This document shows positions 44,429 to 64,000 of a DNA stretch of 64,000 nt, piece by piece. This DNA is from Candidatus Parcubacteria bacterium. Its GTDB lineage: Bacteria > Patescibacteriota > Minisyncoccia > Sungbacterales > SURF-37. The notes below the pieces were generated by a model. That model was not told the DNA's origin, made no database searches, and saw only the letters and a program-made list of their open reading frames with translations. The DNA lies in assembly GCA_003599755.1 (NCBI GenBank), contig QZJO01000009.1, positions 150,362 through 214,361 on the forward strand, in the 5' to 3' direction. The stretch's first letter is position 1; each line of letters opens with the position of its first letter. Position numbers and translations under genes: made by a program.

Positions 44429-44545
44429 CCCGTTAGAAATAGGACGCAGACGCCATAGGCGCCAGGCCGACTGAATTATTGCTGATAAAATCCAATTTCG
44501 ATCTGTGGTCCATAGTCAGGACGCGTCCGCGATGTCTAACGGGAT

Positions 44546-46864
44546 TCATGCCTGGACCCGATCAATATTATCGAGCCAGCGCCGAGCAACCTCCGGCCAG
44601 CCGGATTTCCCGGGAAACGCGGCGATGCGCGCCGAAAGTTCCGCGCGATGCCGCGGACTCGCCACTGCCGCGATGCCTGCCGCAATCATTGCTTCATCGA
44701 GCGGGTCGACAAGCACTGCCAAATCCCCGATCCATTCGGCAAATCCGGTCTCGCGCGTGAGCAATACGGGCGTGCCGGCCGCGATACATTCCAAAACGAG
44801 ATTCGGGCTTACGTCGGACAGCGACGGCAGCGCCACGGCCGCTACCGCCGCGATGCGCGCGGCCAATTCTTGCCGCCCGAGGGACGGCAGCACGCGGATG
44901 CGATCCTCGGCCCCGGCCGCGCGGATGGCAATATTAAGCGCGTGGCGCTCCGGTCCCTCGCCGATGAGCTCCAGCCGCATCGAACGCGGAGCTTTTTTCG
45001 CAAACACGCGCACCAAACGGCTGAGATTCTTCACGCGCACGAAACGGCCCGCAAACAACAGTACCGGCTCGCGCGCTTCCGCTCCGGTACCGCCGGCGGG
45101 AACCGGCGGCGAAATAATCGCGATGCGTGCGGGCGCGATGCCATAACCGGCAGCAAGGGTTTTCTGGCGCCATGCGGATGAGCAGACGAACTGCCGCGCT
45201 TGGGTAAAGGTCCGACGCGTCATGCGCCGGATCAAACGCTCTTTGCGCGTAAATTCAAACACGGTGATGTGCTCTGAAAATTTCGGCAGCGTAAGATCGG
45301 TACCCGTTCGCTCGATGTACGACTCCCATAGCCGATCCCCTTCGATGCGCAGAATCAATGGCCGCCGCCAGAGTCGCGCGGCTGCGGCGACCGGTACGCC
45401 AACCCCAACCGGATCAAGCGCGATCACCGCATCAGCAAGCCGCAGATGCCAAAGCGCCTTCAGAAAATACATGCCCTGACGCAGACCGGGCGGCAGGCGC
45501 ATGGATACCGTACGGAGATGAAATCCTTCGGAGTACGGTATTGCGCCCTGCGGCCGATAACTTAGTACCGTCACCCAGCGGCCGGCGGCAGCCATTTCTT
45601 GAGCCAAACGCCATGCATAGGTCGCGGGGCCGCCGAGTGCGGGCGGCACAAACGGCGTTGCCAAAAGCACGCGCGCTGCCGCGCGCTGTTTGACCAGCGG
45701 CACGAATGCAGTCCTGAATGATTCGGCGATCGCGTCCCATTGATAGAATTTCTTCACCGTCTCACGACCCGCCGCACCCAGCCGCTGGCGCAAAAGACCG
45801 TCGCCCAACAGCCGCGATAATTTCGCCGCCAGATCCTGATAATCATCTACCTTAGCGGCAATACCGTTTTCGCCGTCACGCAAAAAATCTGTAATACCGC
45901 CTACTGCGGTCGCCACCACGGGCACGCCTGCAGCCATAGCTTCCAAGAACGATACGCCAAGTCCTTCGGAACGCGACGGCCGACAATAGATATCCGCAAT
46001 CGCCAGATACCGCGGAATATCCGCATTAGGAACCGAGCCGACAAACTGTACGCGTTCCGCCACACCCAGCGTTCGCGCCAATGTCACGAGGCGCTCTCGC
46101 TCGTGGCCATCGCCGACGATGACGAGCGCCGATGGTGATGCGCCACTCTCGCGATGCATCCTGGCGAACGCACGGATCAAAACATCAATCGCGTTTTTCT
46201 CGACCAGGCGCGACGTGGTGACAATGACGCGGGCATCGGAGGCGATGCCGAGGCGCTTCTTCAGCGCTTCGCGATCCTCGACCGACATGGGATTCTGAAA
46301 TACTGAAAAATCGATACCGTTGGGTATGACGCGCACGCGGCCGCGATAGCCGAATTGGCGAGAGAAATCGCCGAGGTATGAGCTGATCGCCTGCACTTCG
46401 TCGGCGCGGCGCAGTGCGAACCGCCATGCAAATCCAGTCATGCCGAACCGACCATGGCGGATATGCGCTTCCGAGTCGCCCTCCTGCAACGTCTGAAAAA
46501 CCGGTATGTGATCCCAAAACCGCAGCGTATTAATAAAATATGGAATAAGCCCGGACCAATTCACCATCACCGGCCAGAAGAACGCGGGCTTCGTGCGCCG
46601 CATCATACCGAGCACCTTGATCGTCCCCCAAAACGGCAAGAGGAACTTATCGTAGCGGGTGCCTAGGCCGACCCGCACGATCACGCCCTCTTCCCGAAAC
46701 TGCATGGGCGCAAGATCGCGGTTCATGCGCGCGGTAATAATAAAAAAGCGGTACTCCGAAGCGAGCCGCCGCGCGACATGTTCGATTGCGATCTCCGCCC
46801 CGCCGATATACGGATGGTATGCGGTGGTAAAGACCAAGACCGCGGGCTTTTCGGTAGCCATCAT
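44546..46864 (-). CDS. Tandem two-domain GT4 glycosyltransferase (bifunctional, 772 aa)
   Basis: Two complete GT4 units: residues ~1-380 (SEGLGVSFLEAMAAGVPVV) and ~390-772 (VLLATPFVPPALGGPATYAW...). Confidence 0.7.
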   Translation of the reverse strand: MMATEKPAVLVFTTAYHPYIGGAEIAIEHVARRLASEYRFFIITARMNRDLAPMQFREEGVIVRVGLGTRYDKFLLPFWGTIKVLGMMRRTKPAFFWPVMVNWSGLIPYFINTLRFWDHIPVFQTLQEGDSEAHIRHGRFGMTGFAWRFALRRADEVQAISSYLGDFSRQFGYRGRVRVIPNGIDFSVFQNPMSVEDREALKKRLGIASDARVIVTTSRLVEKNAIDVLIRAFARMHRESGASPSALVIVGDGHERERLVTLARTLGVAERVQFVGSVPNADIPRYLAIADIYCRPSRSEGLGVSFLEAMAAGVPVVATAVGGITDFLRDGENGIAAKVDDYQDLAAKLSRLLGDGLLRQRLGAAGRETVKKFYQWDAIAESFRTAFVPLVKQRAAARVLLATPFVPPALGGPATYAWRLAQEMAAAGRWVTVLSYRPQGAIPYSEGFHLRTVSMRLPPGLRQGMYFLKALWHLRLADAVIALDPVGVGVPVAAAARLWRRPLILRIEGDRLWESYIERTGTDLTLPKFSEHITVFEFTRKERLIRRMTRRTFTQARQFVCSSAWRQKTLAAGYGIAPARIAIISPPVPAGGTGAEAREPVLLFAGRFVRVKNLSRLVRVFAKKAPRSMRLELIGEGPERHALNIAIRAAGAEDRIRVLPSLGRQELAARIAAVAAVALPSLSDVSPNLVLECIAAGTPVLLTRETGFAEWIGDLAVLVDPLDEAMIAAGIAAVASPRHRAELSARIAAFPGKSGWPEVARRWLDNIDRVQA

Positions 46865-46877
46865 GAGTAGTACTCGC

Positions 46878-48425
46878 TCAGCCGAATTTCCGCTTCAAGG
46901 CGATCACGCCGATCGCCAGAAGGGCGCTTGCGCCAGCACTGATCCCGAAAAATAACCACGTGCGCGATTGGCTTGGCAATGCGGCGGATAGCGCCGCGGT
47001 CTCGCCTGATGCCGGGACCGACGGCGGCTCAGATTCCCGGGCCAGTATCACCGGCGGTTCCACAGGCGGAGGCGCGGACGTCCGAAGAGCTGCCGCCGGA
47101 CGCGGCATCGGCGCCGGTGCGGCAGCAACGTTCACTGCAACCGCCGGTTTAGCCGGTGCGACAAGGCCGGGCGTGGCAACGCGCTCCACGACAAATGCAT
47201 CGCCATTGCGCACCCAGCTGCCGCTGCCTGGAGAACCGACCAGTGCCGCCGCATCCAGAATCATGCCGCGCGCATCGGCGAGCGTGATCGCGGGCGCCGG
47301 CTTGAGCCACGTGGCGCTGTTCGGAAACGCGATCACGCCCCCTGCCGCAATCAATGTATTGGCCGGAATCGCAAAATTCGTTCCCGCATCATCAGTCAAG
47401 CGAATGCCGGCAAGATCGATGCGCGCGTCGCCGGCGTTGAAAATTTCGACGAACCCATCGTTGCCGGGCTTCACTTCGCTGATGATGAGTTTGGGCGGAT
47501 ATACGATAATCATCCGCCAGTCCGCGCCTGCAAGTTCGCCCGATGATACAGAAAGGTGCGCGTGATACGTTCCCGGGAAATAATAAATATGCGTCAGGGC
47601 TTTGCCTTCTTTGACCCAGCCGTCGCCGAAATTCCAGAGGAATCGGGCGTTCGGGATGAGCTCCTTGTTCAGGCCGTACGCAAGTCCGCGAAATTCAACC
47701 ACCGCGCCGGCAATCACCGTTGTATCGTCCCCCGCGTCGGCGCCGAGTCCCTGCGGCGGCGCGACGGCGATATCCCCGCCCCCTGCGGTCGATTGGTCGG
47801 TATCCGCGCCGCCGGACGACGTAGGCGGCGGATTCGAACCCGGATCGGCCATGCCGGGCGAAGTCATAATGCGCCAAGCGCTTGCCGACCCACGCACGCC
47901 ATCGGCAGCCAATCCGATCGAATCGCCTTCGGCGAGCGAACCAGTATCCACGAACGTTCCCGCGGTCCAGAGGCCGGCTTCGGCCGCGGCCGATTCCCAG
48001 GTCTTTCGCTCGCTCGCGCCGGGCTTTTGGTAGCGGACAAAATCCTCGATCGTATCTGCGGAGCGGCCACCGGGCCGGAACAATGCCACTGAGCCGGACG
48101 AGTTGCCCATGTTTGTCGTCGGCGACGCATGATAATGATTCGCCGCATCGCCGGTTCCGGATGCGCGTAGATGAATCGTCAAAAATGAATGACCCGCAAG
48201 GGATGTCCCTGCGGGAAACGCATAATACCCGATGCCGTCCGGATACAGTTCCCAGCCGCTCAAATCCGCGGGGTTCGATCCGGCATTATAGAGCTCGATC
48301 CTCTCAAGACCCGTGTCCGCGCCGGCCGGATCAAACAGAATCTCATTGATAACCACTGCAGCCCCAGCACCGGCAGGGACGGCTGCGATGATCAAAACCG
48401 CCAATATACCGGGAAAGATACGCAT
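46878..48425 (-). CDS. Secreted/cell-surface protein with two lamin-tail domains, a PKD-like domain, Pro-rich linker and C-terminal TM anchor
   Basis: Signal peptide MRIFPGILAVLIIAAVPAGAGA; LTD motifs VINEILFDPAGADTGLERIELYNAG and IISEVKPGNDGFVEIFNAG; PKD-like WNFGDGW; C-terminal WLFFGISAGASALLAIGVIALKRKFG. Confidence 0.7.
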   Translation of the reverse strand: MRIFPGILAVLIIAAVPAGAGAAVVINEILFDPAGADTGLERIELYNAGSNPADLSGWELYPDGIGYYAFPAGTSLAGHSFLTIHLRASGTGDAANHYHASPTTNMGNSSGSVALFRPGGRSADTIEDFVRYQKPGASERKTWESAAAEAGLWTAGTFVDTGSLAEGDSIGLAADGVRGSASAWRIMTSPGMADPGSNPPPTSSGGADTDQSTAGGGDIAVAPPQGLGADAGDDTTVIAGAVVEFRGLAYGLNKELIPNARFLWNFGDGWVKEGKALTHIYYFPGTYHAHLSVSSGELAGADWRMIIVYPPKLIISEVKPGNDGFVEIFNAGDARIDLAGIRLTDDAGTNFAIPANTLIAAGGVIAFPNSATWLKPAPAITLADARGMILDAAALVGSPGSGSWVRNGDAFVVERVATPGLVAPAKPAVAVNVAAAPAPMPRPAAALRTSAPPPVEPPVILARESEPPSVPASGETAALSAALPSQSRTWLFFGISAGASALLAIGVIALKRKFG

Positions 48426-48476
48426 GGCCGTTCTCTCTACCGTACTGCTCGGACCAGCGCCCGCCAAGAAATAGTT

Positions 48477-48506
48477 GTCCCCGCCTACTCTCGGGCAGGC
48501 GGGGAC
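48477..48506 (-). terminator. Candidate intrinsic terminator after ORF 48511-48936
   Basis: Perfect 10-bp stem GTCCCCGCCT/AGGCGGGGAC followed on the minus strand by AACUAUUUCUU. Confidence 0.45.
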
Positions 48507-48510
48507 GAGC

Positions 48511-48936
48511 TCAGCGCTTCGGGTAGAGCTCAGCGCGGTCGATGGCGTCCACCTGATCAGCCAAGGCGATGAGAATCCGGACCACCGAGCGGAATTTATC
48601 CAGGAACGCGGGCTTGAACGTGGCAAGTACCGCTGCCTCGAGTGAGAGAAGCCACTCCGAGAGATGCTCGATGGATCTGAACACTCCATTCACACTGAGG
48701 CAGAGCTCATCACCTTCCGCTCGTATCTCGAACCGTGCCGAAAGCTCGCAAACTTGCGAACCCCCGATGCGCCGCACGTCGTCGATGAAAACCCAGCCGG
48801 TAAATATTCCGTGGGTATGCATGAACGGCCCGAAGGTCTTTCCCGCAGTTACCATGGAACTCTCCTTTCGCCAGCAGGCCTCCAACTTCCCTATCACGGC
48901 ATCCGACTCCCCGCAAGGGAAAACTTCGCGTACCAT
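48511..48936 (-). CDS. Hypothetical protein (141-aa ORF; possibly shorter from internal Met)
   Basis: ORF with protein-like composition between locus end and GT-C gene; no motif recognised. Confidence 0.35.
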   Translation of the reverse strand: MVREVFPCGESDAVIGKLEACWRKESSMVTAGKTFGPFMHTHGIFTGWVFIDDVRRIGGSQVCELSARFEIRAEGDELCLSVNGVFRSIEHLSEWLLSLEAAVLATFKPAFLDKFRSVVRILIALADQVDAIDRAELYPKR

Positions 48937-48944
48937 ATAAGGCG

Positions 48945-50681
48945 ATGCCCCACAGCACTGTCGCCCGCATTCTGTTTTTGATCATTCTGGCTCTTGCGGC
49001 AATTTTGCGTTTGGCGAATCTCCACCAGGGCGATCCGTTGAACGATGAAGTCGCTTACGCGTTTCGCGCGGTGGCGCTGATCGATTCATACGCTGCCGAA
49101 GAAACGCCGCTTGAGAAGCTCGACCCGAACCGGCCGAGCTGGCTTTCGTTTTCCTTCCATGACCACCCGCCGCTCGTGTTCTGGGTTCAGCATGCTGCGA
49201 TAACGCTCTTCGGCGAAACGCTCTGGGCCGCCCGTCTGCCGTCGGCGTTGCTCGGCATTATTTCGGTATGGCTTATATTCCTCATCGGCCGGCGCATCGC
49301 GACTCGCCCCGCTCCGGCTCCGGCGAAGCGGGCCGAACGATCAGGCCTGATTGCCGCGGCGCTGCTTGCGGCTACGATTCACCACGTATATATATCGCGC
49401 ACCGCGCAGCAGGAGGCATACGTCATCTTCTTTTTGCTCTTGGGCATATGGTTTGCACTCAAATCCCGAGAACAGCCCCGTTACCTCATCGCGCTCGGCG
49501 TAACGGCCGGACTGGGATTTCTCGCCAAATACACCACGCTCGTACTGTTTCCCATCGCTGCCGTCCTATTGACTCCCGTGCTGCGCGAACATCTCCGCCG
49601 CCGCGAGTTCTGGATAGGCGCCGCAGCCGCCGTTCTCGTCGCAAGCCCGGTCCTGATCTACAATTTCCAGCTCTGGCGTACCCTCGGCCATTTTGATCTC
49701 CAGTTCGCGTACCTTTTCGGCAATGCCCCCGAATCGTGGCAGCAAAGCCCCGGCAAGGACATCGGCTCGCTGGGCCATCGGATTGCCGTATTTCTGCCGC
49801 GCCTTGGCCAGACCAACTCATGGTTATTTCTCTCGTTCGCCGTCGCCGCGATCGCGGGATTCGCGGCGGGGTTGACACGCGCTCCTCGAGACACGTTTCG
49901 GCGCTTCGGCGTCATCGCGGCCTCGCTTGTAGCCGTCACGCTGCTTCTTTTGGCCATCGGTCCCTCCATCCGGTTCCTCGCCCTCCTTACGCCGTTTCTT
50001 GCGCTCGCGATCGGCATATTCCTCGATCGCGCGCTGACGCGGCTGCCGCAGCGCTTCGCAGCCGCAGGGATAGCCGCCGTCGTTTTTTTTGCCGCATTTG
50101 AGGCAGCATACAGCTGGAACAACGAAATCGCGGCCGTGCCGGTCGGTTCAAGACCGTGGTTTATCTCTCCCTTGCAATATGAAACCCCGCGTCTCGGCTA
50201 TACGGAACTGGAAGCATGGTTTGCGCATGAATTCGCCAATACATATCCGGTCATAACATTCGAAACGACGTTTGCGTTTACTCAAGAACTCCAAGAGCGC
50301 TCCATACGCCGCATGCGCCAGGCCGGCGCCTCGTCCCGGGCGGCGCTCATCGTGACGTACGGCGATTTTACCCCGCATGCCGAACTCTGGACGTTCGAGC
50401 GGCGGAGGATGCATCAGGGCTGGCCGATCCTTTCGCTTGCCGACTACCAGGCCGCGATTGCCGAGCAGGGACCCGAATTTTTCGCCGCGGCCGGATTTAC
50501 GGAACTCCATATCGTCATCTCCGCGACCATGGTGATTCCCGATGCGCTCAAAATGCTCATTGCAACGCCGGGAACCGAAGAGACCGCCATTCAAAATCCG
50601 GCCGGCAAAACCGCATTCCGGATATTCACCATCCCGCTTACCCAAGCTTTTCGGCCGATCGCATCGCCGGTACAATGGTAA
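48945..50681 (+). CDS. ArnT/PMT-family GT-C glycosyltransferase (dolichyl/undecaprenyl-phosphate-sugar dependent)
   Basis: Polytopic; first-loop LNDEVAYAFRAVALIDS DE motif typical of ArnT/PMT_2; 578 aa. Confidence 0.75.
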   Translation: MPHSTVARILFLIILALAAILRLANLHQGDPLNDEVAYAFRAVALIDSYAAEETPLEKLDPNRPSWLSFSFHDHPPLVFWVQHAAITLFGETLWAARLPSALLGIISVWLIFLIGRRIATRPAPAPAKRAERSGLIAAALLAATIHHVYISRTAQQEAYVIFFLLLGIWFALKSREQPRYLIALGVTAGLGFLAKYTTLVLFPIAAVLLTPVLREHLRRREFWIGAAAAVLVASPVLIYNFQLWRTLGHFDLQFAYLFGNAPESWQQSPGKDIGSLGHRIAVFLPRLGQTNSWLFLSFAVAAIAGFAAGLTRAPRDTFRRFGVIAASLVAVTLLLLAIGPSIRFLALLTPFLALAIGIFLDRALTRLPQRFAAAGIAAVVFFAAFEAAYSWNNEIAAVPVGSRPWFISPLQYETPRLGYTELEAWFAHEFANTYPVITFETTFAFTQELQERSIRRMRQAGASSRAALIVTYGDFTPHAELWTFERRRMHQGWPILSLADYQAAIAEQGPEFFAAAGFTELHIVISATMVIPDALKMLIATPGTEETAIQNPAGKTAFRIFTIPLTQAFRPIASPVQW

Positions 50682-51931
50682 TTATGAACACCTCCAAGCT
50701 TGGACTCATCGGCGCCCTCGTAATCGCCGGCACCCTAATGGCACACTCAGCCGCAGCTGCCACACGGGAAGAAATGATTGCGTCATTGCAGGCGCAAATC
50801 GACGCGCTGCTAGCGCAACTGGCTATGCTCCAGCCCTCGGCGCCACCATCAGTTGTACTACCGTTTACGGAAACCTTGCACCTTGGCTCCCGAGGTCAGG
50901 AAGTGCAAACTCTGCAAAAATTTCTCCGGGACTTTTCGCTCAACCAACCGCACATCTATCCCGAAGGGCTCGTAACTGGGTATTTCGGCCCGTTGACCGA
51001 GGCGGCCGTCAAGCGGTTCCAGATACACTACGGCATCGAGGCCGTAGGCATCGTAGGCCCCAAAACGCGCGCAAAATTGAATGTGCTAGTTCCGCCCAAG
51101 CCGCCAGCGCTCGTCCCTACGCCGGTGACCCCGCCTCCACCCGCTCCTGCCCCAACGCCAGCGCCGGCCCCCGCGCCAACGCCCGCTCCGGCGCCTACGC
51201 CGACCCCTCCGCCTCCGCCTGCATATATTCCCACCCCTTTCCAGCTTGGATTGCCTACGATCAGTGCATTCAAATGGGGATCAACATCGCTGAATCTCAC
51301 GTTCGCGCATGATCCGGGAAATTATACCCGCTCCTACGCGATATACCTGAAAAAATCCGGGGAAACCGCGTTTACCAAATTCGGACCCTACGCGATGCCG
51401 AACATCGGCGAAAGCACGACCGCGGCCGACGGCACATCCCTGCGGCGCATTGCCGTAAACGTTTGGGAATGGAAGCAGCCGGTGGACTACGCGACCCAGG
51501 CCGATGGTGATTACACGGCGTATCTGACGGCCGTCGGCGATGGCGGCGTGGAAAGCCAGGCAACGCCGATGTGGGGCGCGGTTCTCTATTCGGCAATTGA
51601 ATTTGACGAATTCCACCACGACGCGCCGATCCAAGCGGTCATCAACAACGTATTTTCCGATTTCCCGCTCCGCATGCGCATCGCCAATTCCCAAAGCGAT
51701 CTCTATTATAAATACTGGATCTACGACGGCGATACGCTCATCTGGGACAGCGCGTATACCAACCAGGCCGCAAGCTCCAAGATCGAAGTAAGTTTCCAGA
51801 ATCTCGACGGGTACCCGTTTGAGAACGGCAAATCCTATCGCATACGCGCCGAGTCGTTCGACAACAATGTCGGCAACGACTCGCAGATCAGGCAAAAACC
51901 TGCGGAACGGACTCTCACGTACGTCCCGTAG
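50675..51931 (+). CDS. Secreted peptidoglycan-binding (PG_binding_1) domain protein with Pro/Ala/Thr linker and C-terminal beta-rich domain
   Basis: Signal peptide, coiled-coil IASLQAQIDALLAQLAMLQ, PG_binding_1 (LHLGSRGQEVQTLQKFL...GYFGPLTEAAVKRFQ), PAPAPTPAPAPAPTPAPAPTPTPPPPP linker. Confidence 0.75.
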   Translation: MVIMNTSKLGLIGALVIAGTLMAHSAAAATREEMIASLQAQIDALLAQLAMLQPSAPPSVVLPFTETLHLGSRGQEVQTLQKFLRDFSLNQPHIYPEGLVTGYFGPLTEAAVKRFQIHYGIEAVGIVGPKTRAKLNVLVPPKPPALVPTPVTPPPPAPAPTPAPAPAPTPAPAPTPTPPPPPAYIPTPFQLGLPTISAFKWGSTSLNLTFAHDPGNYTRSYAIYLKKSGETAFTKFGPYAMPNIGESTTAADGTSLRRIAVNVWEWKQPVDYATQADGDYTAYLTAVGDGGVESQATPMWGAVLYSAIEFDEFHHDAPIQAVINNVFSDFPLRMRIANSQSDLYYKYWIYDGDTLIWDSAYTNQAASSKIEVSFQNLDGYPFENGKSYRIRAESFDNNVGNDSQIRQKPAERTLTYVP

Positions 51932-52014
51932 TATCCCCGCCGCCGAACCCATGAACGAGGAGCTCCATTCCTCTCCGCCGCTCGGCGGCGGGGTATCCTG
52001 GAGATAAACAAATG

Positions 52015-52044
52015 AAAAGAACCCGCCGAGCGGGTTCTTTTCAT
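52015..52044. terminator. Bidirectional intrinsic terminator between convergent genes
   Basis: AAAAGAACCCGC-CGAG-CGGGTTCTTTT: GC stem flanked by an A-run and a U-run. Confidence 0.6.
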
Positions 52045-52056
52045 GGGTGAGCAAGC

Positions 52057-52857
52057 TCAGTTCCCTTGCTTTTTTGCGATCCGCTCCAGCGCCGCGCGAG
52101 CCGCCGCTCGCTCGGCATCGGACAGATCGGTCAGGCCGAGTAATGTTTCGTAATATTTCTTTGCCTTCGCGTATTCCCGCTGCTCTTCATACAGCGACGC
52201 CAAGCCCCCCACAAGCCCCGCGTCTTCGGAAGCGACGCGGAGGCCGGCGAGAAGAACTTCTTCCGCACGACCCGGATTATGTACGACTTCACGATAGAAA
52301 GCCCCGAACCCGTAGTAATACGCGGCGTGATTCGGATCGCGATCGATCGCGGCCTGGAACTTCGCCTCGGCCTTGGCCGGCTCTTTCAAATAATAACCGT
52401 ACAGCAGCGCGAGATTGTAAAATGGCAGGCCGTCGCTGGGAGAAATGATGTTGAGGTATTCGTAGGCATCGCGCGCACCAGCGTCGTCGTTATAAAAATG
52501 CTTGATATACGCCACGCGCATCCAAAGAGCCGGTACGCGAGGGTCTTTTTCGAGCTGATGCGCGATATCCGCCAATTCCGCGCGCAATTTCGCGTCGGTC
52601 TCCGGCGGCACCTGTTTGAGAAAATCCGGATCAGCGTTGAGCGTTGCTACGGCAACACCCAGATAGTTCGGCGTCTCGCCGTCGATCATCGGCGTCCCCG
52701 TGGCCATGCCAACGTCGATCGGCGCGTCGGCAGGACCATCTGCCGCACCGGGCATTTTGCCATAATACCGCCAAACAACCGCTGCGATTACAGCGGCGGC
52801 AGCGACGAGCGTAACGATTCCGAGCGTGCGATAGTTGCGAAAGCCAATCCCAAGCAT
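52057..52857 (-). CDS. Membrane-anchored TPR-repeat protein
   Basis: N-terminal TM helix, C-terminal TPR-like repeats (YYYGFGAFYREVV..., AKAKKYYETLLGL). Confidence 0.55.
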   Translation of the reverse strand: MLGIGFRNYRTLGIVTLVAAAAVIAAVVWRYYGKMPGAADGPADAPIDVGMATGTPMIDGETPNYLGVAVATLNADPDFLKQVPPETDAKLRAELADIAHQLEKDPRVPALWMRVAYIKHFYNDDAGARDAYEYLNIISPSDGLPFYNLALLYGYYLKEPAKAEAKFQAAIDRDPNHAAYYYGFGAFYREVVHNPGRAEEVLLAGLRVASEDAGLVGGLASLYEEQREYAKAKKYYETLLGLTDLSDAERAAARAALERIAKKQGN

Positions 52858-52887
52858 ACGAACGCCAGTGTAGCGGAAATCGCGCCA

Positions 52888-53433
52888 TTATTCAAACGGG
52901 GCACTCCTATGGTTCGGATTGACGTGATCCGGCGTAAATGGGATTTCGGCGTAGGGCATGCCGCCTCGCCAGTTGCGGATCCCGATCGCGACGTGGTGCA
53001 TAAGATTGGCCGGCAACGCATCAAGCGAGAACCAGCGAAGTTCATCGCATTTATGCGGTTCGCGGTTTTGCGGCTCGCCCTGCCATTGTTCGACAAGAAA
53101 AAATAAATCCACGCGCTCACCGGTTTTGTCGTGCTTGGCGCGATACATCGTGTGCACGAGCCGAGCAGCCGCAGGATCAAACGTAATACTGATTTCCTCC
53201 ATTGCCTCGCGCGCCATTGCTTGGAGCGGCAATTCGCCGGCCTCAATATGGCCGGACGGCACCGTATACCAACCGTCATAATAGCCGGTGTTGATGCGGC
53301 GGCTGAGAAGAATTCCGCCATCCCGATGCAAGATAAGATATACGGCCGGAACCGCTTTGTGCCGATCCTTCACCTGCCCGATGTTTCCGGTAGATTCAGT
53401 CATGAAAATATGAGCTGTATGCAAATGCTGCAT
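52888..53433 (-). CDS. NUDIX hydrolase
   Basis: Nudix box GHIEAGELPLQAMAREAMEEISI; start ambiguous (MQHL at 53433 or MTES at 53403; ORF extends further upstream). Confidence 0.7.
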   Translation of the reverse strand: MQHLHTAHIFMTESTGNIGQVKDRHKAVPAVYLILHRDGGILLSRRINTGYYDGWYTVPSGHIEAGELPLQAMAREAMEEISITFDPAAARLVHTMYRAKHDKTGERVDLFFLVEQWQGEPQNREPHKCDELRWFSLDALPANLMHHVAIGIRNWRGGMPYAEIPFTPDHVNPNHRSAPFE

Positions 53434-53587
53434 TGAGTTTACCCGAAAATTGTATAGAAAAATTCGGCGGGCGCATGCGATCATGATACCGCGGGATAAC
53501 TCAAAAGCCCCGGCATGGCCGGGGCTTTTGGCAACGCTAAACCCCGCCCACAAGGGGCGGGGTTTAGCCGAGTCACAAGGAGAACTC

Positions 53588-56500
53588 TTAGAGCGTGAAG
53601 GTCTTCGGCTCGGCACCGTCAGACGGCAAGCCAGGGATCTGGAAGCCGTTGTACCAGTCCGGACCCATGATGCCGCCGCCAGAACCACTGTGCGTGGTCG
53701 TGGAGTTGCCGGACCAGATGAAGTCATCACCCGATCCTATGGCATCGTTGTTCGAACCGGTAGTCAGTGCAGTGCCGCCGGAGGTACCAGCCTGCGCGGC
53801 ATCAACATACGGCGCCGTTGTGGCGAACCCGTAGTTGATCGCGCCTGCGAGGAAGCCGGCGTCATCGTACGCCGTGGTGCCGCCACTGGTATTGGCGATT
53901 GCCGGATACCATGTGCCGTCGCCCATGAGGCGAACCGTTGCGGAGTCGCCGGTATCGGCGCCGCTCACGTCACCGCGAAGCTCGAAGTAGTACGTCGCGC
54001 CTGCGGGAATGTGGAGCGATTCTGCCGATGTGACCGCGGAAGCCGAGGTATTCGACGGGTTGAAGTAGATCGCGAAGTCCGTTGTGGTCGCGCGATCACT
54101 TTCCATGCCGTCTACCACGCTGTCGGACGAACCGAACAGCGAGCCCTGGTTCACCGGATTTGCGGCGAATGCGTCGCCCGAAAGCGTAGTACCGACTTTC
54201 GAGGTATACGCGTAGAGCTTCAGGTTGGTAACCGAGAAGTCCGTCGTGAAGACGCCACCAGATACGCCCGTAGTCTCGTCAGAAGTCGTGGAGACCTGGA
54301 AGGTCACCTTGTAGAGCGAGACGCCGTTCGTGCCCGACGGGGCAGAGACGGAGAAGCGATACAGCGGCTTGCCGCTCTGATCGGCGAAGCTCGACGAGAT
54401 ATCCCCGAGCAGCGGCGTGATCGTCGGGTATGCCCGTACGACGCGGACACCATTCGAAGCGGTATCAGCGCTCGAGGAGCGTACGGTGTCCGATGATTGC
54501 GTGCCGATGCCGTAGGTCGTCGAGAGGCCGTTTTGGTTCACCTGGTCGAAGTCGACCGCAACGAGGTGGCCTGGCCGGCCGGACTCGTTGTTGCCGATGG
54601 GTGCGAGCTGCGCTTTGACCGTGACGATCTTGTCAGTGTCTTTCGCAACCGTGAGGCCCGTGGTGGTGACGATGATGCCCGAATCCGAAGAGGATGCGGA
54701 GACCTCGCCTACCTTGGTCGAGCCGTCCCAGACCGAAAGCTTGATCAGGTCAGCCGGCGTGTTCGAGGCGGTGTTCGAGAGCTGCAGCGTAAGCTGCTTC
54801 ACGTCCATGCCTTCATTGGTCGCCGTCAGGCGGAGCTTCAGCATTTCGATTTCCTGACCCGCGAGCGCGAGGCGCGTTCCCGCTGGCGCTTCTTGCGCGA
54901 TCGTGAAGGTGCCGCCGGCCGAGAAGGTCATGAGGTTCGATACCGAGGACGAGGCCACCGCCGGGTTGATGGTGTTACCGGAGGTAAGACCGGTTCCCTG
55001 GATGGCGCTCGAGCCGTATTCGTCACCCGCGAGCGAGAACTGCGCCGATGCGCCCGTGCCGCTCTTGGAGATGTCGCACTTCACGGCAACCGTCTTCGAA
55101 GTTCCTTTCGGAACGACCAAGGCGTTGTCGAGCGTGAAGGTCAACTCGTGAATGCCTGCCGTGGACGGATTCTGAATGTTCGAACCGGTGTTGAGGGCAG
55201 TAGTGCCGTCGAACATCTGGCAGTTCGATACATCGGATGTCACGGAAGCGTGGAGCTGGACGCGCGCCTGGTTGAAGCGAACGTCTTCACCCGAGTTGGA
55301 TGCGTCGAAGATGAGGTTGGCGAAGGTGAAGGCCTGAGCGCCGCGGATCACGCTTTGCGCGGTCGGCGAGTTGCCAACCGATACGTTCACCGCGCCGGTC
55401 TTCACGGTCATCGAGACGCCCGATACGGTGCCGGTGTTGGCAGTCGTAATGGAAGCGCCCGAGGTTTCGCCGCGAACCGAGGTCCAGTCGGAGTTCGGCG
55501 TAGTCGAAGCGGACACCAAGGTGTCGGCATCGAAGTCCGTCGAGAGCTTGCCCTTCAGGACGTAGACATTCTTCCCGACCGGGAAGGTGACCGCATCCGT
55601 GTAGGTGAAGACCATCTGGCCGTCGGCCGTGCCGGAGCCGTCCTTCGGACCCGCAACGACCGCGCCCGTCGCGTTGTTGACGAGTTTGACGTCGGTGTAA
55701 TCGGCTTCGGTAACGTTGGAGTCGTTCTTATTGGTCGAGACGCGCACGACGATAGAGGAAACCGTAATCGGTTCACCCTTCACGTCGACGTCGAAGGCGC
55801 CGAGCACCTGGTCGTTCAGGTTAACCGCAATGTTCTGCGCCTGAACGGCGTTCGATGCGGTAACCGTGAGCGTACCGTTGCCGACGGTCGCTTCGTATGC
55901 GTCCCATACCGGGTTCACGTCGTCGTCGAGCGTGCCGTCGTCGTCGGTCTGCGAATCATTCTGGTCGGAAGATACCGCCGGCGTAAGGCCGAACCCGAAC
56001 TGCTTGCCGACAACATAGATGTCGGTCAGGCGGTAGAGGTCAAAGTCCACACCGCGGTTTGATCCGCCTTCGATATCGCCTTTGACGTACACCTCAACGC
56101 TGTTGCCTTTCTTGATGTCCACGCCGCTGCCGAAGGAAGCCGAGTAGTACTTGCCGTCGGAGGAAATGACTGCGGCGTGATCCGTGCCGCCCACGTTGAT
56201 GACCACGTTCTTCAGGTCAGACGCTGCAGCCGAACCGGACTGGTTGAAGGTGATCGACTTCAAGCTTACGTCCTCGTCCGAACCCGCGGTCAGGCGGAGG
56301 CCGGTGAAGATGTAGCCCTTGGTGCCGATTTCCTTGGTCTGGCCGGATCCCGGATCGTTCACGCCCTTTTGGAAGGTGAGCGAGCCGATGGTCAGGGTCG
56401 CGTTCATGGTGATGGAGCTGCCGACGATCGGAAGCGAACCGCTCACCGAGGACGAACCCGCATCAACCGCGACAACCGCAAACCGCGCGATGGAACCGCC

Positions 56501-57297
56501 GTCAGTTCCTGACGCGGGGCGGTTAAAGGCAATCGTCAGCGTGCGGGATGTTCCGCGCGCAACCGTGAACTTTTCGTTCAAGATCGCCTGGTGGTTCGAG
56601 TTGAGGGTCTTGGAGATGCCGATCTGGAGGCCGTTCTCATCGAGGAGTACGACGCCCGAAACCGACGAATCGTTTGCCGGGCCCTGGCGCTCCACCGTGA
56701 TGGAGTTGACCGTCACGTCACCGTCAGCAGAGGCGGTAAGCGTGATCTTGGTTGCCGGGACGCGCGCGGCGTTCAACGGAGCGAGCGAGTCGCCCGGTTG
56801 GGACGCCGTGGATACCGAGAGGCCGGAGCCAACCGGTCCCGGAGGCGTCGGCGTACCCGGAGGCGTCGGGGTTGGCGTCGGCGTCGCAGCCATGAGCGCG
56901 TTGTACTTCGCGCGCGAGATGGAGCCGAAGTAACCGGCCGTCGGGCTTACGCCGTTTGCTGCCTGCCATTTCGATACGGCTTGCTGGGTGCGAGCACCGA
57001 AGTAGGTGGTCTCGTTCCCGGGCGAGCCGGCACCGCTGGCCGCAACTTGGTGGCCCGCGGCGTTGAGATATTTCTGCAGGCACATGACATCGTCACCCGT
57101 GACCCCGATGGTGAGGTCGCGCGTGAAGGTGCACTTGGCCGCAGTACCGCCGCCGCCTTGCTGACCAAGGAGCGCGTTCAGTTGCGCTTGCAGTTGCGCG
57201 ATCTGAGCGAGCAGCTCTTCGATCGTTACCGCGGAAGCCGTTGAGGCGCTCGCGAGCAACGCGACAGTCGAGAGAGCAACGATGACTTTCGCCATCG
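53588..57297 (-). CDS. Giant secreted cell-surface protein (1236 aa): signal peptide, coiled coil, PG_binding_1 domain, then ~1000-aa Ser/Thr/Gly-rich beta-rich region (S-layer/adhesin candidate)
   Basis: Start MAKVIVALSTVALLASASTASA preceded by SD AGGGAGG; IEELLAQIAQLQAQLNALL; PG-binding CLQKYLNAAGH...TYFGARTQQAVSKWQ; Pro/Thr linker PTPTPTPPGTPTPPGP. Confidence 0.75.
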
Positions 57298-57348
57298 TTC
57301 CTCCCTTAGGAAGAAATCTATTCATAGCGACTGATTCACTGATTAGCG

Positions 57349-57370
57349 ATTCCGCCGGATGGCGGAATCA
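57349..57370. repeat. Perfect 9-bp-arm palindrome GATTCCGCC-ggat-GGCGGAATC in leader region
   Basis: Read directly. Confidence 0.6.
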
Positions 57371-57684
57371 ATCTTCGAGGCCGGCCGCTTCGACGCGTTA
57401 GTGCGGCGCATGCCTGAAGAGTTACGGAATAATTAATGCGGATAGCGAATGGAGGTTTGTGGTGAGGATTCGCGAGGGGCTTTTTTGTGCCCGCTGCGGC
57501 CGGAACGGGAATCGAGCGGCGGATGCTACCGCCGTCCTGCAATCCCCCATCCGGACGCAGAGGGAGATCGACCGGGCCTGAAACGCGAACCCCGGGAATT
57601 GGGTAACTAAGATAGGATTCGAGAAACGTAACCTTGTTCGCTCAGTTGTCAACGTTCTGTCCGACCTGGCACATGCGTTCCAGC

Positions 57685-57733
57685 CAGGATCTCAAGCGGG
57701 TTTCCGCGGAAAAGAAACGTTCTTGAGATCCTG
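57685..57733. repeat. 12-bp-arm inverted repeat CAGGATCTCAAG ... CTTGAGATCCTG with 25-nt loop
   Basis: Read directly; potential RNA structure or protein-binding site upstream of the giant gene. Confidence 0.6.
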
Positions 57734-57876
57734 CCTGCAACTTTAGAATCACGAATAGAACTGGCTGCCAATAAATGAGGACGTGCTAAAAACGGCTCGG
57801 TAAGCCCTCACCTCATTGGCGACTGGGGTATCACTTGCCCCATTATATAGCGGCCTTTTTCCTCGGCAACCATTTA

Positions 57877-57885
57877 TGTGGATAA
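57877..57885. promoter_or_regulatory. Perfect DnaA box TGTGGATAA (reverse complement TTATCCACA)
   Basis: Exact 9-mer consensus. Confidence 0.5.
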
Positions 57886-57992
57886 GTTCTCCTGAGGAAA
57901 ACGCTGATGAGCACTATATTTCCGCACACTTTTCGCAAGAGAGCAAATCCGGTCAAAAAAGAACGAGGATGCCCTCATGCCTACGATTCGCG

Positions 57993-58001
57993 TGTGGATA
58001 A
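57993..58001. promoter_or_regulatory. Perfect DnaA box TGTGGATAA, same orientation, 116 bp from the first
   Basis: Exact 9-mer consensus. Confidence 0.5.
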
Positions 58002-58099
58002 GTAACGCCCTGCGCCGCTCACCAGCGCAATAGGCGAGGATCTGACGCTGGGACTATCCGTAGCATTCAAGAGCTATTCGAAGCTATTGCAAAAACAAA

Positions 58100-58275
58100 A
58101 TTTTATTGGATAATTTTTATCTGATCTCTATCGGACATGCCTCGAGGTATATTGACCATATAAAATGAACATTTTCCTATCAGACATCTATCGGACATAA
58201 ATATTCACGCATATCGGACATTGGTTAAAAACGCCTCAGGAATCCATAAATCCTGAGGCATTTCTATGTCCGACA
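58100..58275. repeat. AT-rich island (~30% G+C by count) with five copies of a TATCGGACAT-like 10-mer (58129, 58178 variant, 58189, 58212; inverted near-copy at 58266) and hairpin GCCTCAGG...CCTGAGGC
   Basis: Direct counting: 58081-58200 contains 37 G+C in 120 nt; repeats read directly; degenerate DnaA-like TGGATAA at 58107-58113. Confidence 0.6.
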
Positions 58276-58340
58276 AGTTTCGTTTCCGATATGGCGTCCC
58301 CTAGATCCGTTGATAGCCAAACGAAACGAATCGGATGAGC

Positions 58341-59048
58341 TCACAGAGCTTTAGCCGTTCCCCGGTTGTACGAATAGGTCGTCCAACGATTGTCCCCGTG
58401 GCGGGATATGATGCCTGCGGTAACGAGCTGAAGAAGATCGCGCTGGATGGTCTTCTCGCTGACTATTGCGTCAAACAGTTTGACGATGTCGCTGATCTGC
58501 GCGTGCTCGACGGTTTGGAGATGTTCGATGATCTTTTTCTGTCGGGCGTTGAAGAGAAGCGCGGCTGGCGCCTGTTGCTCATTCACGGCTACGGGGATGG
58601 ATGCGGCCGTTGCCTCCTCTAAACGTACGGATTCTGCCGTAGAATTGGCCGGCGCAAGCGAAGACAATGGTTTAAGCGTTACGGGCTCGGCTGGAATGGA
58701 TGCCATGACCGGCGGCTCAAACACGGCCACTGCATCGGCAAGATCCTGATAGGCCTGACACAGACGGTCTTTGTTTTCGGCGCTGACTAACCCGAGGTCG
58801 GCCGCGAGCCGAATGAGCTCTTGCGCGCCGGCCGAGGCCGCGCGCACCATGTCGCTGCCCGCCTCCGATCCGCCGAGAATCGTGACCGCTGCCACGGCCG
58901 AAATCACCTCGGCCGCTTTTTGCCGAAGCGTGGTGCGCAACGCCGGATCGAACCATTCCGGATTGCTGACGCGCCAGACCGCTTGCGCGGCCGCGAGCGC
59001 CCGCGAGCGCAATTGAGCCGCTTGTTCTTGAAATTCACTACTGGGCAT
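58341..59048 (-). CDS. Putative regulator: N-terminal four-helix-bundle-like domain fused to C-terminal DeoR-type winged HTH
   Basis: C-term KKIIEHLQTVEHAQISDIVKLFDAIVSEKTIQRDLLQLVTAGII; N-term LRQKAAEVIS...RAASAGAQELIRLAADLGLV loosely matches the four-helix-bundle family; start at MPSSEF (the ORF extends to 59195). Confidence 0.4.
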   Translation of the reverse strand: MPSSEFQEQAAQLRSRALAAAQAVWRVSNPEWFDPALRTTLRQKAAEVISAVAAVTILGGSEAGSDMVRAASAGAQELIRLAADLGLVSAENKDRLCQAYQDLADAVAVFEPPVMASIPAEPVTLKPLSSLAPANSTAESVRLEEATAASIPVAVNEQQAPAALLFNARQKKIIEHLQTVEHAQISDIVKLFDAIVSEKTIQRDLLQLVTAGIISRHGDNRWTTYSYNRGTAKAL

Positions 59049-59283
59049 ACGATGCGGCCATCCTAGCGAGCTTAAAAAATATTCGCAAACAGAAGAGCGC
59101 CGACACGGAATGCCGACATTCTTCCGTCGGCCCGCGTCGGCGCTGGCTATTTGTCCTTCCGTTCCCACGGCGGAGATCTGCGGCATGCGCCGCATCGACC
59201 CGTTCCCTGGGTAGACATCTGTGACACCTGTGCGCCGCAGAGTTCACAGTTGACCAGAAGCGGCAGCATCCCCATCCCCCTCC

Positions 59284-59550
59284 CTACCGCCGCTTCGCGT
59301 AGACGCGGAACGTCTCCTCGGTGACATTCATGATCCTCGCCTCGCGGCCCGCGGAGAGCCAGAGCTCCATCGCCTCCATTTCCGGGATCGAATAGCGTTC
59401 GGCGATGGTGGCGAGCTCGCCGGCCTGGAGATTGCACTCCTCTGCGATCTGGGCTTCGCTCATCTCGCTGTCACAACCGACCGCATTGCGGGTCGCGATG
59501 AAGCGGAGATACTCCTTGGCACTCGACTTATACTTCTGCGTTCCATCCAT
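59284..59550 (-). CDS. Small (88 aa) HTH-containing hypothetical protein
   Basis: Strong SD GAGGAGG 6 nt upstream; MSEAQIAEECNLQAGELATIAERY helix-turn-helix-like segment. Confidence 0.45.
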   Translation of the reverse strand: MDGTQKYKSSAKEYLRFIATRNAVGCDSEMSEAQIAEECNLQAGELATIAERYSIPEMEAMELWLSAGREARIMNVTEETFRVYAKRR

Positions 59551-59562
59551 ACTCTACCTCCT

Positions 59563-59853
59563 CTATCGAATCGGAATGCCTTGCCCGCGATCGCGCTCCT
59601 TCAGGCGGTCTTTCAGCGGCGAGCCGCTGTAGTTCACCCAGTAGCGTCGATGTGTGTGCACCAACGGTCGGCCCGGTGCGCGGCTCTCCACGAACGTCTG
59701 GCGATCCTCCGGTCTCGCATCGCGAAATACTTCGATGAGCACCACATCCCCTCGCCACTCGATGTGTCGCAAGGCAGTTCGCGGCGTGACGATTTCAGTC
59801 AGGAACTGTTCGAGCCCGAATGGCGCAGCCAGTCGATTCATAATCGTGGCCAT
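59563..59853 (-). CDS. Hypothetical protein (96 aa)
   Basis: SD AGGAGG 7 nt upstream; AT-rich TATAAT-containing region upstream; no motif recognised. Confidence 0.45.
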   Translation of the reverse strand: MATIMNRLAAPFGLEQFLTEIVTPRTALRHIEWRGDVVLIEVFRDARPEDRQTFVESRAPGRPLVHTHRRYWVNYSGSPLKDRLKERDRGQGIPIR

Positions 59854-59889
59854 TGCTATCCTCCTGTCTCAGGAAAAACATAATATTAT

Positions 59890-59934
59890 AAGAAAGTCAA
59901 ATATGCTACCGACCTGCCGTGTGGCAGGTCGGTA
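59890..59934 (-). terminator. Intrinsic terminator after clpB
   Basis: Perfect 12-bp stem TACCGACCTGCC-gtgt-GGCAGGTCGGTA followed on the minus strand by GCAUAUUUGACUUUCUU. Confidence 0.6.
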
Positions 59935-59957
59935 CACATCGCTATCGATAGAGAACT

Positions 59958-62624: not shown

Positions 62625-62640
62625 GCGTGATGTGCTACGA

Positions 62641-62677: not shown

Positions 62678-62737
62678 AGGATCCTCGATACCGCATCATT
62701 ATCTCTATTACCGCGCGGCCAAGATCTTGGTCAGCGG

Positions 62738-63952: not shown

Positions 63953-64000
63953 ATACAGTGACGAAAATAATCAGTCGTCTACCGCCTCTACGCGCCGCAC

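Follow-up and report, generated by a model that had tools for sequence, protein, structure and literature searches.

In Caldicellulosiruptor bescii, a Gram-positive bacterium, the GT39 enzyme Cbes_1864 is needed for the glycosylation of Pro/Thr-linker proteins and is encoded near the gene of an acceptor, celA, while deletion of that enzyme abolishes the glycosylation of secreted proteins, leaving them open to proteolysis (PMC6151902). In streptococci, GtrB and a GT-C enzyme glycosylate extracytoplasmic Ser/Thr-rich disordered regions, which modification protects from proteolysis (PMC11092751). Here we describe, in a 64-kb window of a Candidatus Parcubacteria metagenome-assembled genome (contig QZJO01000009.1; the window being the whole stretch of 64,000 nucleotides [nt] that was analyzed, with positions counted from its first letter), a gene for a GT-C glycosyltransferase that overlaps the gene for a secreted surface protein, SP1, and lies in the vicinity of the gene for a giant surface protein endowed with the same wall-anchoring module as SP1. 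We tentatively propose, with a confidence that falls somewhat short of even, that this enzyme O-glycosylates the Pro/Thr hinges of peptidoglycan-anchored surface proteins; namely, SP1, the giant, and perhaps a protein with LTD domains.

The likeness of this locus to Cbes_1864 and CelA, which is drawn by description and not by sequence, consists in a GT-C membrane enzyme of ~556-578 amino acids (aa) with homology to dolichyl-phosphate-mannose (DPM)-protein mannosyltransferases, in the proximity of its gene to that of a secreted multidomain protein with Pro/Thr linkers, and in a bacterium without lipid A; the acceptors there are cellulases, whereas here the candidates are peptidoglycan-anchored surface proteins of Patescibacteria, known from their genes alone. 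With the streptococcal GtrB/PgtC2 and the Pgf systems the locus would share a scheme in which a GT-A enzyme makes an undecaprenyl-phosphate (Und-P) sugar and a GT-C enzyme transfers that sugar, outside the cell, onto Ser/Thr-rich unstructured segments beside folded domains, and the partner GT2 of the present enzyme matches the PgfS model weakly; PgtC2, however, belongs to the YfhO family and not to PMT_2, and the acceptors in that system are membrane proteins and LPXTG adhesins (PMC11092751). The actinobacterial pair of Pmt (GT39) and Ppm1 offers a third likeness, in the lipid-monophosphate donor from a DPM1-like GT2, the DE motif in loop 1, the Ser/Thr-rich and Pro-rich acceptor segments in secreted proteins, and a Pfam PMT match above the cutoff; but the enzyme of the window has no PMT_4TMC domain and carries instead a ~170-aa C-terminal alpha/beta domain, as do ArnT, AglB, and PglB. 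With ArnT (GT83) and ArnC, finally, it has in common the transmembrane (TM) bundle followed by a C-terminal periplasmic domain, together with a partner GT2 that matches the ArnC model weakly, although the ArnT equivalog cutoff is missed and the candidate genes of the window fit other pathways better, as specified below.

The genes at the center of this comparison are the following:

48945-50681, plus strand: GT-C glycosyltransferase, 578 aa, Pfam PMT_2
50675-51931, plus strand: SP1, a secreted, peptidoglycan-anchored surface protein, 418 aa, Pfam PG_binding_1
52012-52044, strand not applicable: hairpin, a probable bidirectional terminator, with a 15-pair stem (terminator scan and reading of the sequence)
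52057-52857, minus strand: tetratricopeptide-repeat (TPR) protein with a single N-terminal TM helix, 266 aa, weak Pfam matches to TPR_8 and TPR_17
52888-53400, minus strand: Nudix hydrolase, Pfam NUDIX at E 6e-20
53588-57295, minus strand: giant surface protein, peptidoglycan-anchored, 1235 aa, from Pfam and a start codon with a Shine-Dalgarno sequence

The enzyme belongs to the GT-C_A class and to Pfam PMT_2 but is the orthologue of neither Pmt nor ArnT. It matches PMT_2 over the entire profile (positions 1-160 of 160; E 7e-27, 95 bits) and, more weakly, PMT (profile positions 59-236 of 245; E 6e-9, 36.2 bits versus a cutoff of 22.7), and contains ~10 predicted TM helices (9-11 by hydropathy). 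The AlphaFold2 (AF2) model (pLDDT 87, pTM 0.89) displays a TM bundle followed by the C-terminal, extracytoplasmic alpha/beta domain at about residues 400-570, and the conserved N-terminal TM module with the catalytic acidic residue in loop 1, by which the GT-C_A fold is recognized, is present. In an alignment of 22 sequences D34-E35 is invariant, as are S70, H72-D73-H74-P75, K195-Y196, and H249-F250-D251, and the family has an invariant HDHPPL motif. D34-E35 aligns with the 'FDEV' motif of ScPmt1, and the DE pair recurs in a fused paralogue encoded at 35181-37649; that motif is nevertheless present in ArnT as well and therefore does not discriminate Pmt from ArnT. The preliminary description of this stretch had spoken of a PMT-family GT-C with the DE motif, of which the PMT_2 and PMT matches and D34-E35 stand, whereas the status of a PMT orthologue does not: no PMT_4TMC domain was detected in the enzyme at E <= 0.01 or among the precomputed Pfam domains of its 81 homologues, and the NCBIfam Pmt equivalog NF058602 gives 21.1 bits versus a cutoff of 800. 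The ArnT equivalog PRK13279 gives 32.7 bits versus 567, and the match to the NCBIfam Agl23 family is likewise weak (31 bits), the cutoffs of the ArnT, Agl23, and Pmt equivalogs being between four and nearly forty times the scores obtained. A PDB sequence search with the single GT-C sequence returned no match.

All 81 protein homologues detected, and likewise the related genomic loci, come from Paceibacteria-type Patescibacteria (Niyogi-, Harrison-, Sung-, Ryan-, and Giovannonibacteria among others). The enzyme belongs to a Parcubacteria-specific clade, one that is equally distant from Pmt and ArnT; a database protein, P0001, is 100% identical to it, and the databases annotate it already as a GT39-family or phospholipid-carrier-dependent glycosyltransferase. 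Two related loci titled 'Micrarchaeota' and 'Gammaproteobacteria' look like mislabelled bins. The sequence and the fold of the enzyme do not discriminate between a protein and a wall polymer as the acceptor.

The TAA stop of the GT-C gene (50679-50681) overlaps the ATG of SP1 at 50675 by 7 nt, as had been stated earlier, and a second in-frame ATG for SP1 occurs at 50684. The GT-C gene had been described as lying immediately upstream of both surface-protein genes; this position holds for SP1 but not for the giant, whose gene is 2.9 kb away in convergent orientation, with the TPR gene, the Nudix gene, and the hairpin 52012-52044 in between. The giant, moreover, had been placed at 53588-57297 with 1236 aa, but 57297 is out of frame: the start is the ATG at 57295, preceded by AAGGGAGG, which gives 1235 aa on the minus strand, a strand that the earlier description had not mentioned. 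The stop/start overlap and the minus-strand location of the giant lead us to consider GT-C and SP1 as one transcription unit and the giant, Nudix, and TPR genes as a second, convergent unit; the region is thus the junction of two convergent operons within a conserved cell-envelope and glycan locus of a Paceibacteria-type genome. The hairpin, a GC-rich palindrome between an A-run and a T-run, is common to both units, and since the count of terminator-like matches in the region is not above the shuffled expectation, its reading as a terminator rests on its position and stem length.

The domain content ascribed earlier to the two surface proteins proved to be real as well, although in place of the short coiled coil described there what is observed is only a conserved amphipathic segment. 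In SP1 a signal peptide and an amphipathic LQAQIDALLAQL segment are followed by PG_binding_1 (residues 73-135, nt 50891-51079; E 3e-14), a Pro/Ala/Thr linker (residues 137-189, nt 51083-51241), and a C-terminal domain of ~229 aa (nt 51242-51928) with no Pfam match; in the giant the order is signal peptide, LQAQLNALL segment, PG_binding_1 (residues 66-119, nt 56939-57100; E 9e-9), Pro/Thr hinge, and some eight tandem beta-sandwich domains. Between the two proteins the N-terminal module, comprising the signal peptide, the amphipathic LQAQIxALLAQ segment, and PG_binding_1, is 32-35% identical over ~125 aa (E 1e-8 to 5e-11), and profile-profile comparison with hhalign gives a probability of 99.8% at E 1.9e-29 over 135 columns. 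Both sets of statistics mark the likeness as homology and not chance, so that the common architecture claimed earlier is, as judged from these alignments, a homologous wall-anchoring module shared by SP1 and the giant, which module is absent from every other open reading frame (ORF) of the window. Beyond the module both proteins continue with a Pro/Thr/Ala hinge (~50 aa in SP1, ~20 aa in the giant), while the C-terminal domain of SP1 is unrelated to any giant domain by hhalign and both bodies are without a Pfam match.

By exhaustive phmmer, the family of the SP1 C-terminal domain numbers only 19 clusters in a set of 1.84 billion representatives, a word-index search with that domain having found no match. 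All the full-length homologues have the same architecture, with a Pro-rich linker of roughly 50-80 aa that is Thr-rich in most of them. The N-terminal module of one SP1 orthologue (P0208, at 6193-7455 of locus L090) is 46% identical to that of the giant, including a CTFTR...C motif, and resembles the other SP1 modules less than it does the giant's, which likeness points to an exchange of modules between the SP1 and giant families. A conserved Cys pair, C54 and C71, flanks the start of PG_binding_1 in the module, and two invariant Cys occur within one beta domain of the giant (C542 and C590 of alignment A2, or residues ~692 and 740 of the full protein); both pairs are possible disulfides of extracellular proteins, in a lineage with minimal redox machinery.

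The hinge of the giant, AATPTPTPTPPGTPTPPGPV (residues 136-155, nt 56831-56890), with a tryptic peptide that spans AATPTPTPTPPGTPTPPGPVGSGLSVSTASQPGDSLAPLNAAR, is P/A/T-rich in 76 homologues and poly-Thr in some. It is the single 30-aa Pro/Ser/Thr-dominated stretch of the protein. The characterization of the giant as extremely Thr/Ser/Gly-rich was overstated: the contents are T 11.5%, S 11.3%, and G 11.3% (34% together), spread through the folded beta domains.

The operonic pair is kept in relatives. GT-C followed by SP1 is found in L089, L090/L091, L086, and L003 at only 39-48% protein identity; in L086 a 34-aa fragment upstream of SP1 ends like the consensus C-terminus of the GT-C family, as compared by eye. 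The pair is retained in every relative that displays both genes, with the single exception of L087/L088, and locus L090 mirrors the gene arrangement seen here, with LTD, GT-C, SP1, TPR, giant, DeoR, and ClpB genes, at identities of 48% for GT-C, 39% for SP1, and 60% for the giant. Close relatives are present in assemblies from Hainich groundwater (L090, L096, L098).

To place these genes in a wider context, we clustered the ORFs within 7 kb on either side of GT-C in 81 loci; namely, the window and 80 orthologue loci, these being the best 80 of 245 confirmed stretches. The commonest neighbor is a same-strand GT2 of ~236 aa (37 of the 81 loci; Pfam Glycos_transf_2), whose NCBIfam matches to AglJ, ArnC, dolichyl-phosphate (Dol-P)-hexose transferase, PpgS, and PgfS are those of a polyprenyl-phosphate-sugar synthase type. 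A DUF2079 multi-TM protein, absent from the window, is divergently paired with GT-C in 24 loci (e.g., L045, 8496-9956), a methyltransferase-like protein is nearby in 18, and a small membrane protein of ~130 aa follows GT-C in about 8. Homologues of the giant lie within 10 kb of GT-C in 7 of the 81 loci, and in the reverse test, among the 16 of 80 metagenome giant loci that have 5 kb or more on each side, GT-C is near the giant in 3. The arrangements in which the two genes occur are these:

GT-C, giant, TPR (L093)
GT-C, DeoR, giant, TPR (L030, L039)
giant, GT-C, TPR, GT-C (L080, 3557-11593)
giant, GT-C, GT-C, TPR (L127, 9719-18301)
giant, GT-C (L126)
giant, TPR, intervening genes, LTD, GT2, DUF2079 (not in all), GT-C (L047, L078)

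The tightest clustering of giant, GT-C, and TPR is seen in the distant relatives L080 and L127, where one or two GT-C paralogues stand between the giant and TPR. That GT-C is found beside the giant in at least five gene orders argues for a selected proximity rather than for inherited synteny alone, and this recurrence in changing arrangements suggests a functional coupling. The protein-acceptor reading is accordingly drawn from the GT-C/SP1 overlap, the retention of that pair at 39-48% identity, the Pro/Thr linkers, and the proximity of GT-C to the giant.

With respect to the sugar donor, as well as to the alternatives to be weighed, four further genes of the window come into consideration:

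35181-37649, minus strand: GT2::GT-C fusion, 822 aa, Pfam Glycos_transf_2 and PMT_2
40413-42131, minus strand: orphan multi-TM protein, 572 aa, no Pfam family at E <= 1
9057-11018, minus strand: orphan multi-TM protein, 653 aa, no Pfam family at E <= 1
46878-48425, minus strand: LTD-PKD-LTD surface protein, Pfam LTD (E 1.6e-28) and PKD

The sugar donors of GT-C enzymes of this class are polyprenyl-monophosphate monosaccharides and not nucleotide sugars; consequently, the GT2 domain of the fusion is the only suitable donor supplier in the window, and the rest of the glycan locus makes something else that would be attached by another enzyme. The earlier suggestion that the neighboring glycan locus supplies the sugars therefore holds for that GT2 domain, but not for the remainder, whose products are not lipid-monophosphate suppliers. 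At 38-41% identity, the N-terminal domain of the fusion is the only homologue in the window of the standalone GT2 flanking the GT-C orthologues; it matches the NCBIfam models for AglJ, ArnC, and Dol-P-hexose transferase, all below cutoff, resembles a polyprenyl-phosphate-sugar synthase, and is the probable donor supplier. The C-terminal half is a PMT_2-type GT-C with NDE and PPL motifs (hhalign probability versus the GT-C family, 96.4%), so that a single polypeptide would both make the donor and transfer the sugar. The donor logic of our proposal thus follows from a GT2 of the AglJ/ArnC/PpgS/PgfS type being the most frequent neighbor of GT-C and having a homologue in the window.

The ~48 kb upstream constitute a glycan locus with a Wzx-like flippase, TagF-like transferases, many GT4s, and methyl- and formyltransferases. 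Positions 1-30728 of the window encode two NeuB, two CMP-sugar cytidylyltransferases, a UDP-GlcNAc 2-epimerase, a PseC/RfbH-like aminotransferase, a formyltransferase, and three TagF-like proteins, which set suggests the synthesis of one or two nonulosonic (sialic-acid-like) acids and their attachment to a polymer in a reduced-genome bacterium. An aminoarabinose (Arn) pathway was considered and rejected: the Arn-like appearance arose from a sugar dehydrogenase, a dehydratase, an aminotransferase, a formyltransferase, a deacetylase, and the GT2::GT-C fusion, none of which reaches the NCBIfam Arn cutoffs, and the models for RfbH/PseC, dTDP-glucose 4,6-dehydratase, UDP-ManNAc dehydrogenase, and PgaB fit better. 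The two orphan proteins have roughly 10-12 TM helices each and a C-terminal soluble domain, and may serve the glycan locus as novel polymerases, ligases, or transferases; that they might be further GT-C paralogues found no support, the hhalign probability being <2%.

Observed here are the fold, the conservation of motifs and hinges, the structure of the operon, and the neighborhood statistics, whereas we infer the donor, the membrane topology, the acceptor, and the effect of the glycosylation. The GT-C would be an inverting, polyprenyl-phosphate-sugar-dependent enzyme with its active site at D34-E35, in the first loop, outside the membrane. A GT2 synthase—the 236-aa neighbor of GT-C in relatives and the N-terminal domain of the fusion in this genome—would, on the inner side of the membrane, charge polyprenyl phosphate with one sugar taken from a nucleotide sugar, and the lipid-linked sugar would then be flipped across. 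The GT-C would move the sugar to the Thr/Ser hydroxyls of the unstructured Pro/Thr/Ala hinges that stand between the peptidoglycan-binding module and the beta-rich bodies, the acceptors being SP1, co-translated from the same operon, with the giant and possibly the LTD/PKD protein as further candidates. Glycosylation of the hinges would, in the end, add stiffness and protection from proteases.

The giant itself appears to be a core component of the envelope. At least 1486 full-length homologues exist; the best 120 listed are nearly all of ~1150-1300 aa with 40-70% identity, and the named matches all belong to Parcubacteria or Patescibacteria group bacteria or to an unclassified 'bacterium'. The best match in the protein databases is 68% identical, and the giant and SP1 of the window were themselves not returned, so that the coverage of the source genome in the sequence collections may be partial. 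The AF2 model of residues 151-1235 is all-beta with ~8 sandwich domains (pLDDT 83), and Foldseek relates that model to Ig-like arrays (PrgB at E 4e-12, mastigoneme proteins, integrin legs) and to the S-layer protein SbsC (E 2e-5, TM 0.10), with TM-scores that are low throughout (0.1-0.2). As a secreted, wall-anchored chain of some eight beta sandwiches encoded near glycan-synthesis genes, the giant thus recalls the S-layer and Ig-like arrays of Geobacillus SbsC and Enterococcus PrgB; the anchoring, by contrast, is by a coiled-coil-like segment and PG_binding_1 and not by SLH, CWB2, or LPXTG, and the conservation, at the 40-70% full-length identity of the best 120 among at least 1486 matches, is unusual for such proteins. 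No SLH, CWB2, or SLAP anchoring module was found in it, PG_binding_1 being the sole domain detected with Pfam. Highly expressed peptidoglycan-binding-domain proteins have been reported for methanogen-attached Paceibacteria (PMC10936435), but the one gene traceable there is of 2079 nt and hence does not belong to the family of the giant.

The TPR protein of the window has its TM helix at residues 11-29. Of the 54 metagenome loci with room for it, 41 have a TPR gene immediately after the giant, and a TPR homologue is directly downstream of the giant in L030, L039, L047, L078, L081, L083, L084, and L090. A Nudix homologue, on the other hand, is near the giant in 1 of the 80 other loci, and the Nudix gene between the giant and TPR genes is therefore an insertion specific to the window. 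In L081, L083, and L084 the order is HtrA, ClpB, one or two small genes, giant, TPR, and glycan genes, followed in L081 and L084 by an LTD/PKD protein and a double GT4 (~770 aa); and the Paceibacteria as a whole keep the order HtrA, ClpB, regulator or NTP-transferase, giant, TPR, glycan genes. The giant with its TPR partner looks like a conserved, major wall-anchored surface structure, and hence a core envelope module of the lineage.

An extension of our proposal would make the giant a major surface or S-layer-like glycoprotein of the Paceibacteria, with its hinge, like that of clade-specific relatives such as SP1, O-glycosylated by the lineage-specific GT-C and the TPR protein acting as an acceptor-presenting subunit; that whole construction is unlikely. 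The eukaryotic TMTC enzymes are GT-C proteins fused to TPR, and the TPR/GT-C pair would, if the construction were true, be a 'split' counterpart of TMTC and, for the candidate phyla radiation, a first described system of protein glycosylation. A GT-C/TPR fusion, which was sought as Rosetta-stone evidence, did not emerge: a TPR domain is listed in none of the 81 GT-C homologues.

Several observations weigh against a protein acceptor. The conserved partners of GT-C are GT2 and DUF2079 and not surface proteins, which partners fit a wall-polymer or lipoglycan pathway equally; only in the clade of the window is the gene directly downstream of GT-C that of a secreted P/T-linker protein; and in L087/L088 SP1 directly follows PaaX_M and LTD genes with no GT-C upstream. 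As for the giant, no GT-C lies within 10 kb in 13 of the 16 giant loci with full flanks, nor in L081, L083, and L084, although in the contig of L081 a GT-C (L020) is located ~30 kb from the giant; the co-occurrence of ~10-20% is only a few-fold above a rough expectation of 3-5% for a single-copy gene in a genome of ~0.8 Mb, and the counts ignore the kinship of the genomes. The window contains, in the fusion, another PMT_2-type GT-C, the family profile is slightly nearer ArnT (34.9 bits) than ScPmt1 (28.7 bits), and the whole neighborhood is an envelope and glycan locus in which the proximity to surface genes may be incidental. The earlier claim of a protein O-glycosylation system retains, then, the operon with a Pro/Thr-linker protein and the precedent of described systems, but is weakened by the nature of the conserved partners and by SP1 not being a dedicated acceptor, since the SP1 family is tiny and the GT-C family widespread: GT-C followed by SP1 is confined to relatives whose GT-C is 46-48% identical, and SP1 is a clade-specific addition.

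The main alternative is that the GT-C decorates or extends a non-protein glycoconjugate of the envelope—be it a wall polysaccharide, a teichoic-acid-like polymer, or a lipoglycan—at the outer face of the membrane and from the same lipid-linked donor, in which circumstance adjacency to the surface-protein genes would reflect only common membership in an envelope locus. We regard this as a substantial possibility, though one less probable than not. Lipid-linked monosaccharide donors are used by GacL, by YfhO/GtlB, and by the mycobacterial PimE, Mpt, and Aft. The triad of GT2, PMT_2 GT-C, and DUF2079 in 24-37 of the 81 loci would suit such a pathway, as would the ~48 kb of glycan genes with their flippase, TagF-like transferases, GT4s, and second, fused GT-C, along with the synteny from HtrA, ClpB, giant, and TPR through the glycan genes to LTD and the double GT4 that is maintained without a nearby GT-C (L081, L083, L084). 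Foldseek ranks ArnT first (E 3e-9), ahead of STT3, ALG12/9, and Pmt4, and ArnT is also the best match of the profile; in structure the model is close to protein-glycosylating GT-C enzymes as well as to ArnT. Lipid A is not known from the Parcubacteria, a circumstance that would remove an ArnT-type acceptor, nor is any wall polymer known for them, which latter point we count against this alternative. Moreover, a wall-polymer enzyme would not readily explain the translationally coupled GT-C and SP1 genes conserved at low identity, or the repeated relocation of GT-C genes beside or inside the giant-TPR unit.

Improbable, in our estimation, is a second alternative that would retain the surface proteins as acceptors but have the GT-C add a terminal sugar to a glycan already attached to them by another enzyme of the glycan locus, on the model of AglS, the archaeal enzyme by which the S-layer N-glycan receives its last mannose from Dol-P-Man. 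A Wzx-type flippase and many cytoplasmic glycosyltransferases do imply a lipid-linked oligosaccharide that needs transfer, the orphan proteins at 40413-42131 and 9057-11018 could be the ligase or polymerase, the giant is always beside glycan genes (L081, L083, L084), and a weak Agl23 match (31 bits) exists; but no O-oligosaccharyltransferase domain of the Wzy_C, PglL, or WsaB type was found among the window ORFs scanned, and neither orphan shows a relation to known families or to the GT-C. A complete lack of any functional link, with neutral synteny in one clade accounting for both the GT-C/SP1 adjacency and the nearness of the giant and with the module merely marking two unrelated wall-anchored proteins, we consider to be slightly more improbable still, for although the GT-C/SP1 pair is limited to relatives with a 46-48% identical GT-C and the enrichment near the giant is modest with kinship ignored, the start/stop overlap has been maintained at ~40-48% protein identity and at least five gene orders keep GT-C beside giants that are only ~30-43% identical.

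The remaining features of the region concern the flanks of the two operons:

48511-48936, minus strand: 141-aa ORF, no Pfam match, in the position of the PaaX_M gene of relatives
57296-58340, minus strand: gene-free leader upstream of the giant, no ORF >=80 aa, ~1 kb
57842-57869, minus strand: sigma-70-like promoter match, TTGCCG-16-TATAAT, 10/12 matches
58341-59195, minus strand: DeoR-type regulator, followed by ClpB and HtrA

The promoter match lies ~520 nt upstream of the giant start, and the count of promoter-like matches is not above the shuffled expectation. Long gaps precede the giant in relatives as well (550-860 nt in L081, L083, and L084), and the leader could be a long, stabilizing 5' untranslated region as in highly expressed S-layer genes, or a novel RNA element; an Rfam search of positions 44000-64000, including that leader, returned only sub-threshold chance matches at terminator hairpins. 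ClpB and HtrA in the window were identified from their own sequences and from a gene order that corresponds to the Clp/AAA and Trypsin/PDZ Pfam labels in L081/L083/L084. The likely true start of the LTD-PKD-LTD protein is M89 of the long ORF, at nt 48425; the protein has a signal or TM segment and a C-terminal TM anchor, its gene diverges from GT-C, and homologues adjoin GT-C in L003, L047, L078, L089, L090, and L093 and occur in the giant loci L081 and L084. In L087, L090, L091, and L084 a gene of 187-192 aa with a PaaX_M domain diverges from GT-C where the window has 48511-48936, which ORF may be a degraded or divergent regulator gene, or no gene.

The Parcubacteria and related groups are bacteria of ultra-small size, for the most part uncultured, whose way of life is attachment to other cells, and to our knowledge almost nothing is known of the biochemistry of their envelope. 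In the literature searched we found no paper on DUF2079, on GT-C/GT39 enzymes in the candidate phyla radiation, or on the present GT-C clade, the shared module, the SP1 family, or the giant/TPR pair. The enzyme class and the two-step logic are known already, and since the mechanism of the GT-C is that of a well-known class and the databases label it a 'GT39 family protein', the advance is one of context rather than of kind; what is new is the Parcubacteria-specific GT-C clade with its partners, the shared wall-anchoring module, the tiny SP1 family, and the widespread giant/TPR pair. Independently of the acceptor, the conserved giant and its TPR partner are hereby defined as a core envelope module. 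As to the central claim regarding that acceptor, which we infer, should the GT-C indeed glycosylate wall-anchored surface proteins, the group would thereby gain its first assigned system of protein glycosylation, one that would tie the large and variable glycan loci of these bacteria to identifiable surface structures.

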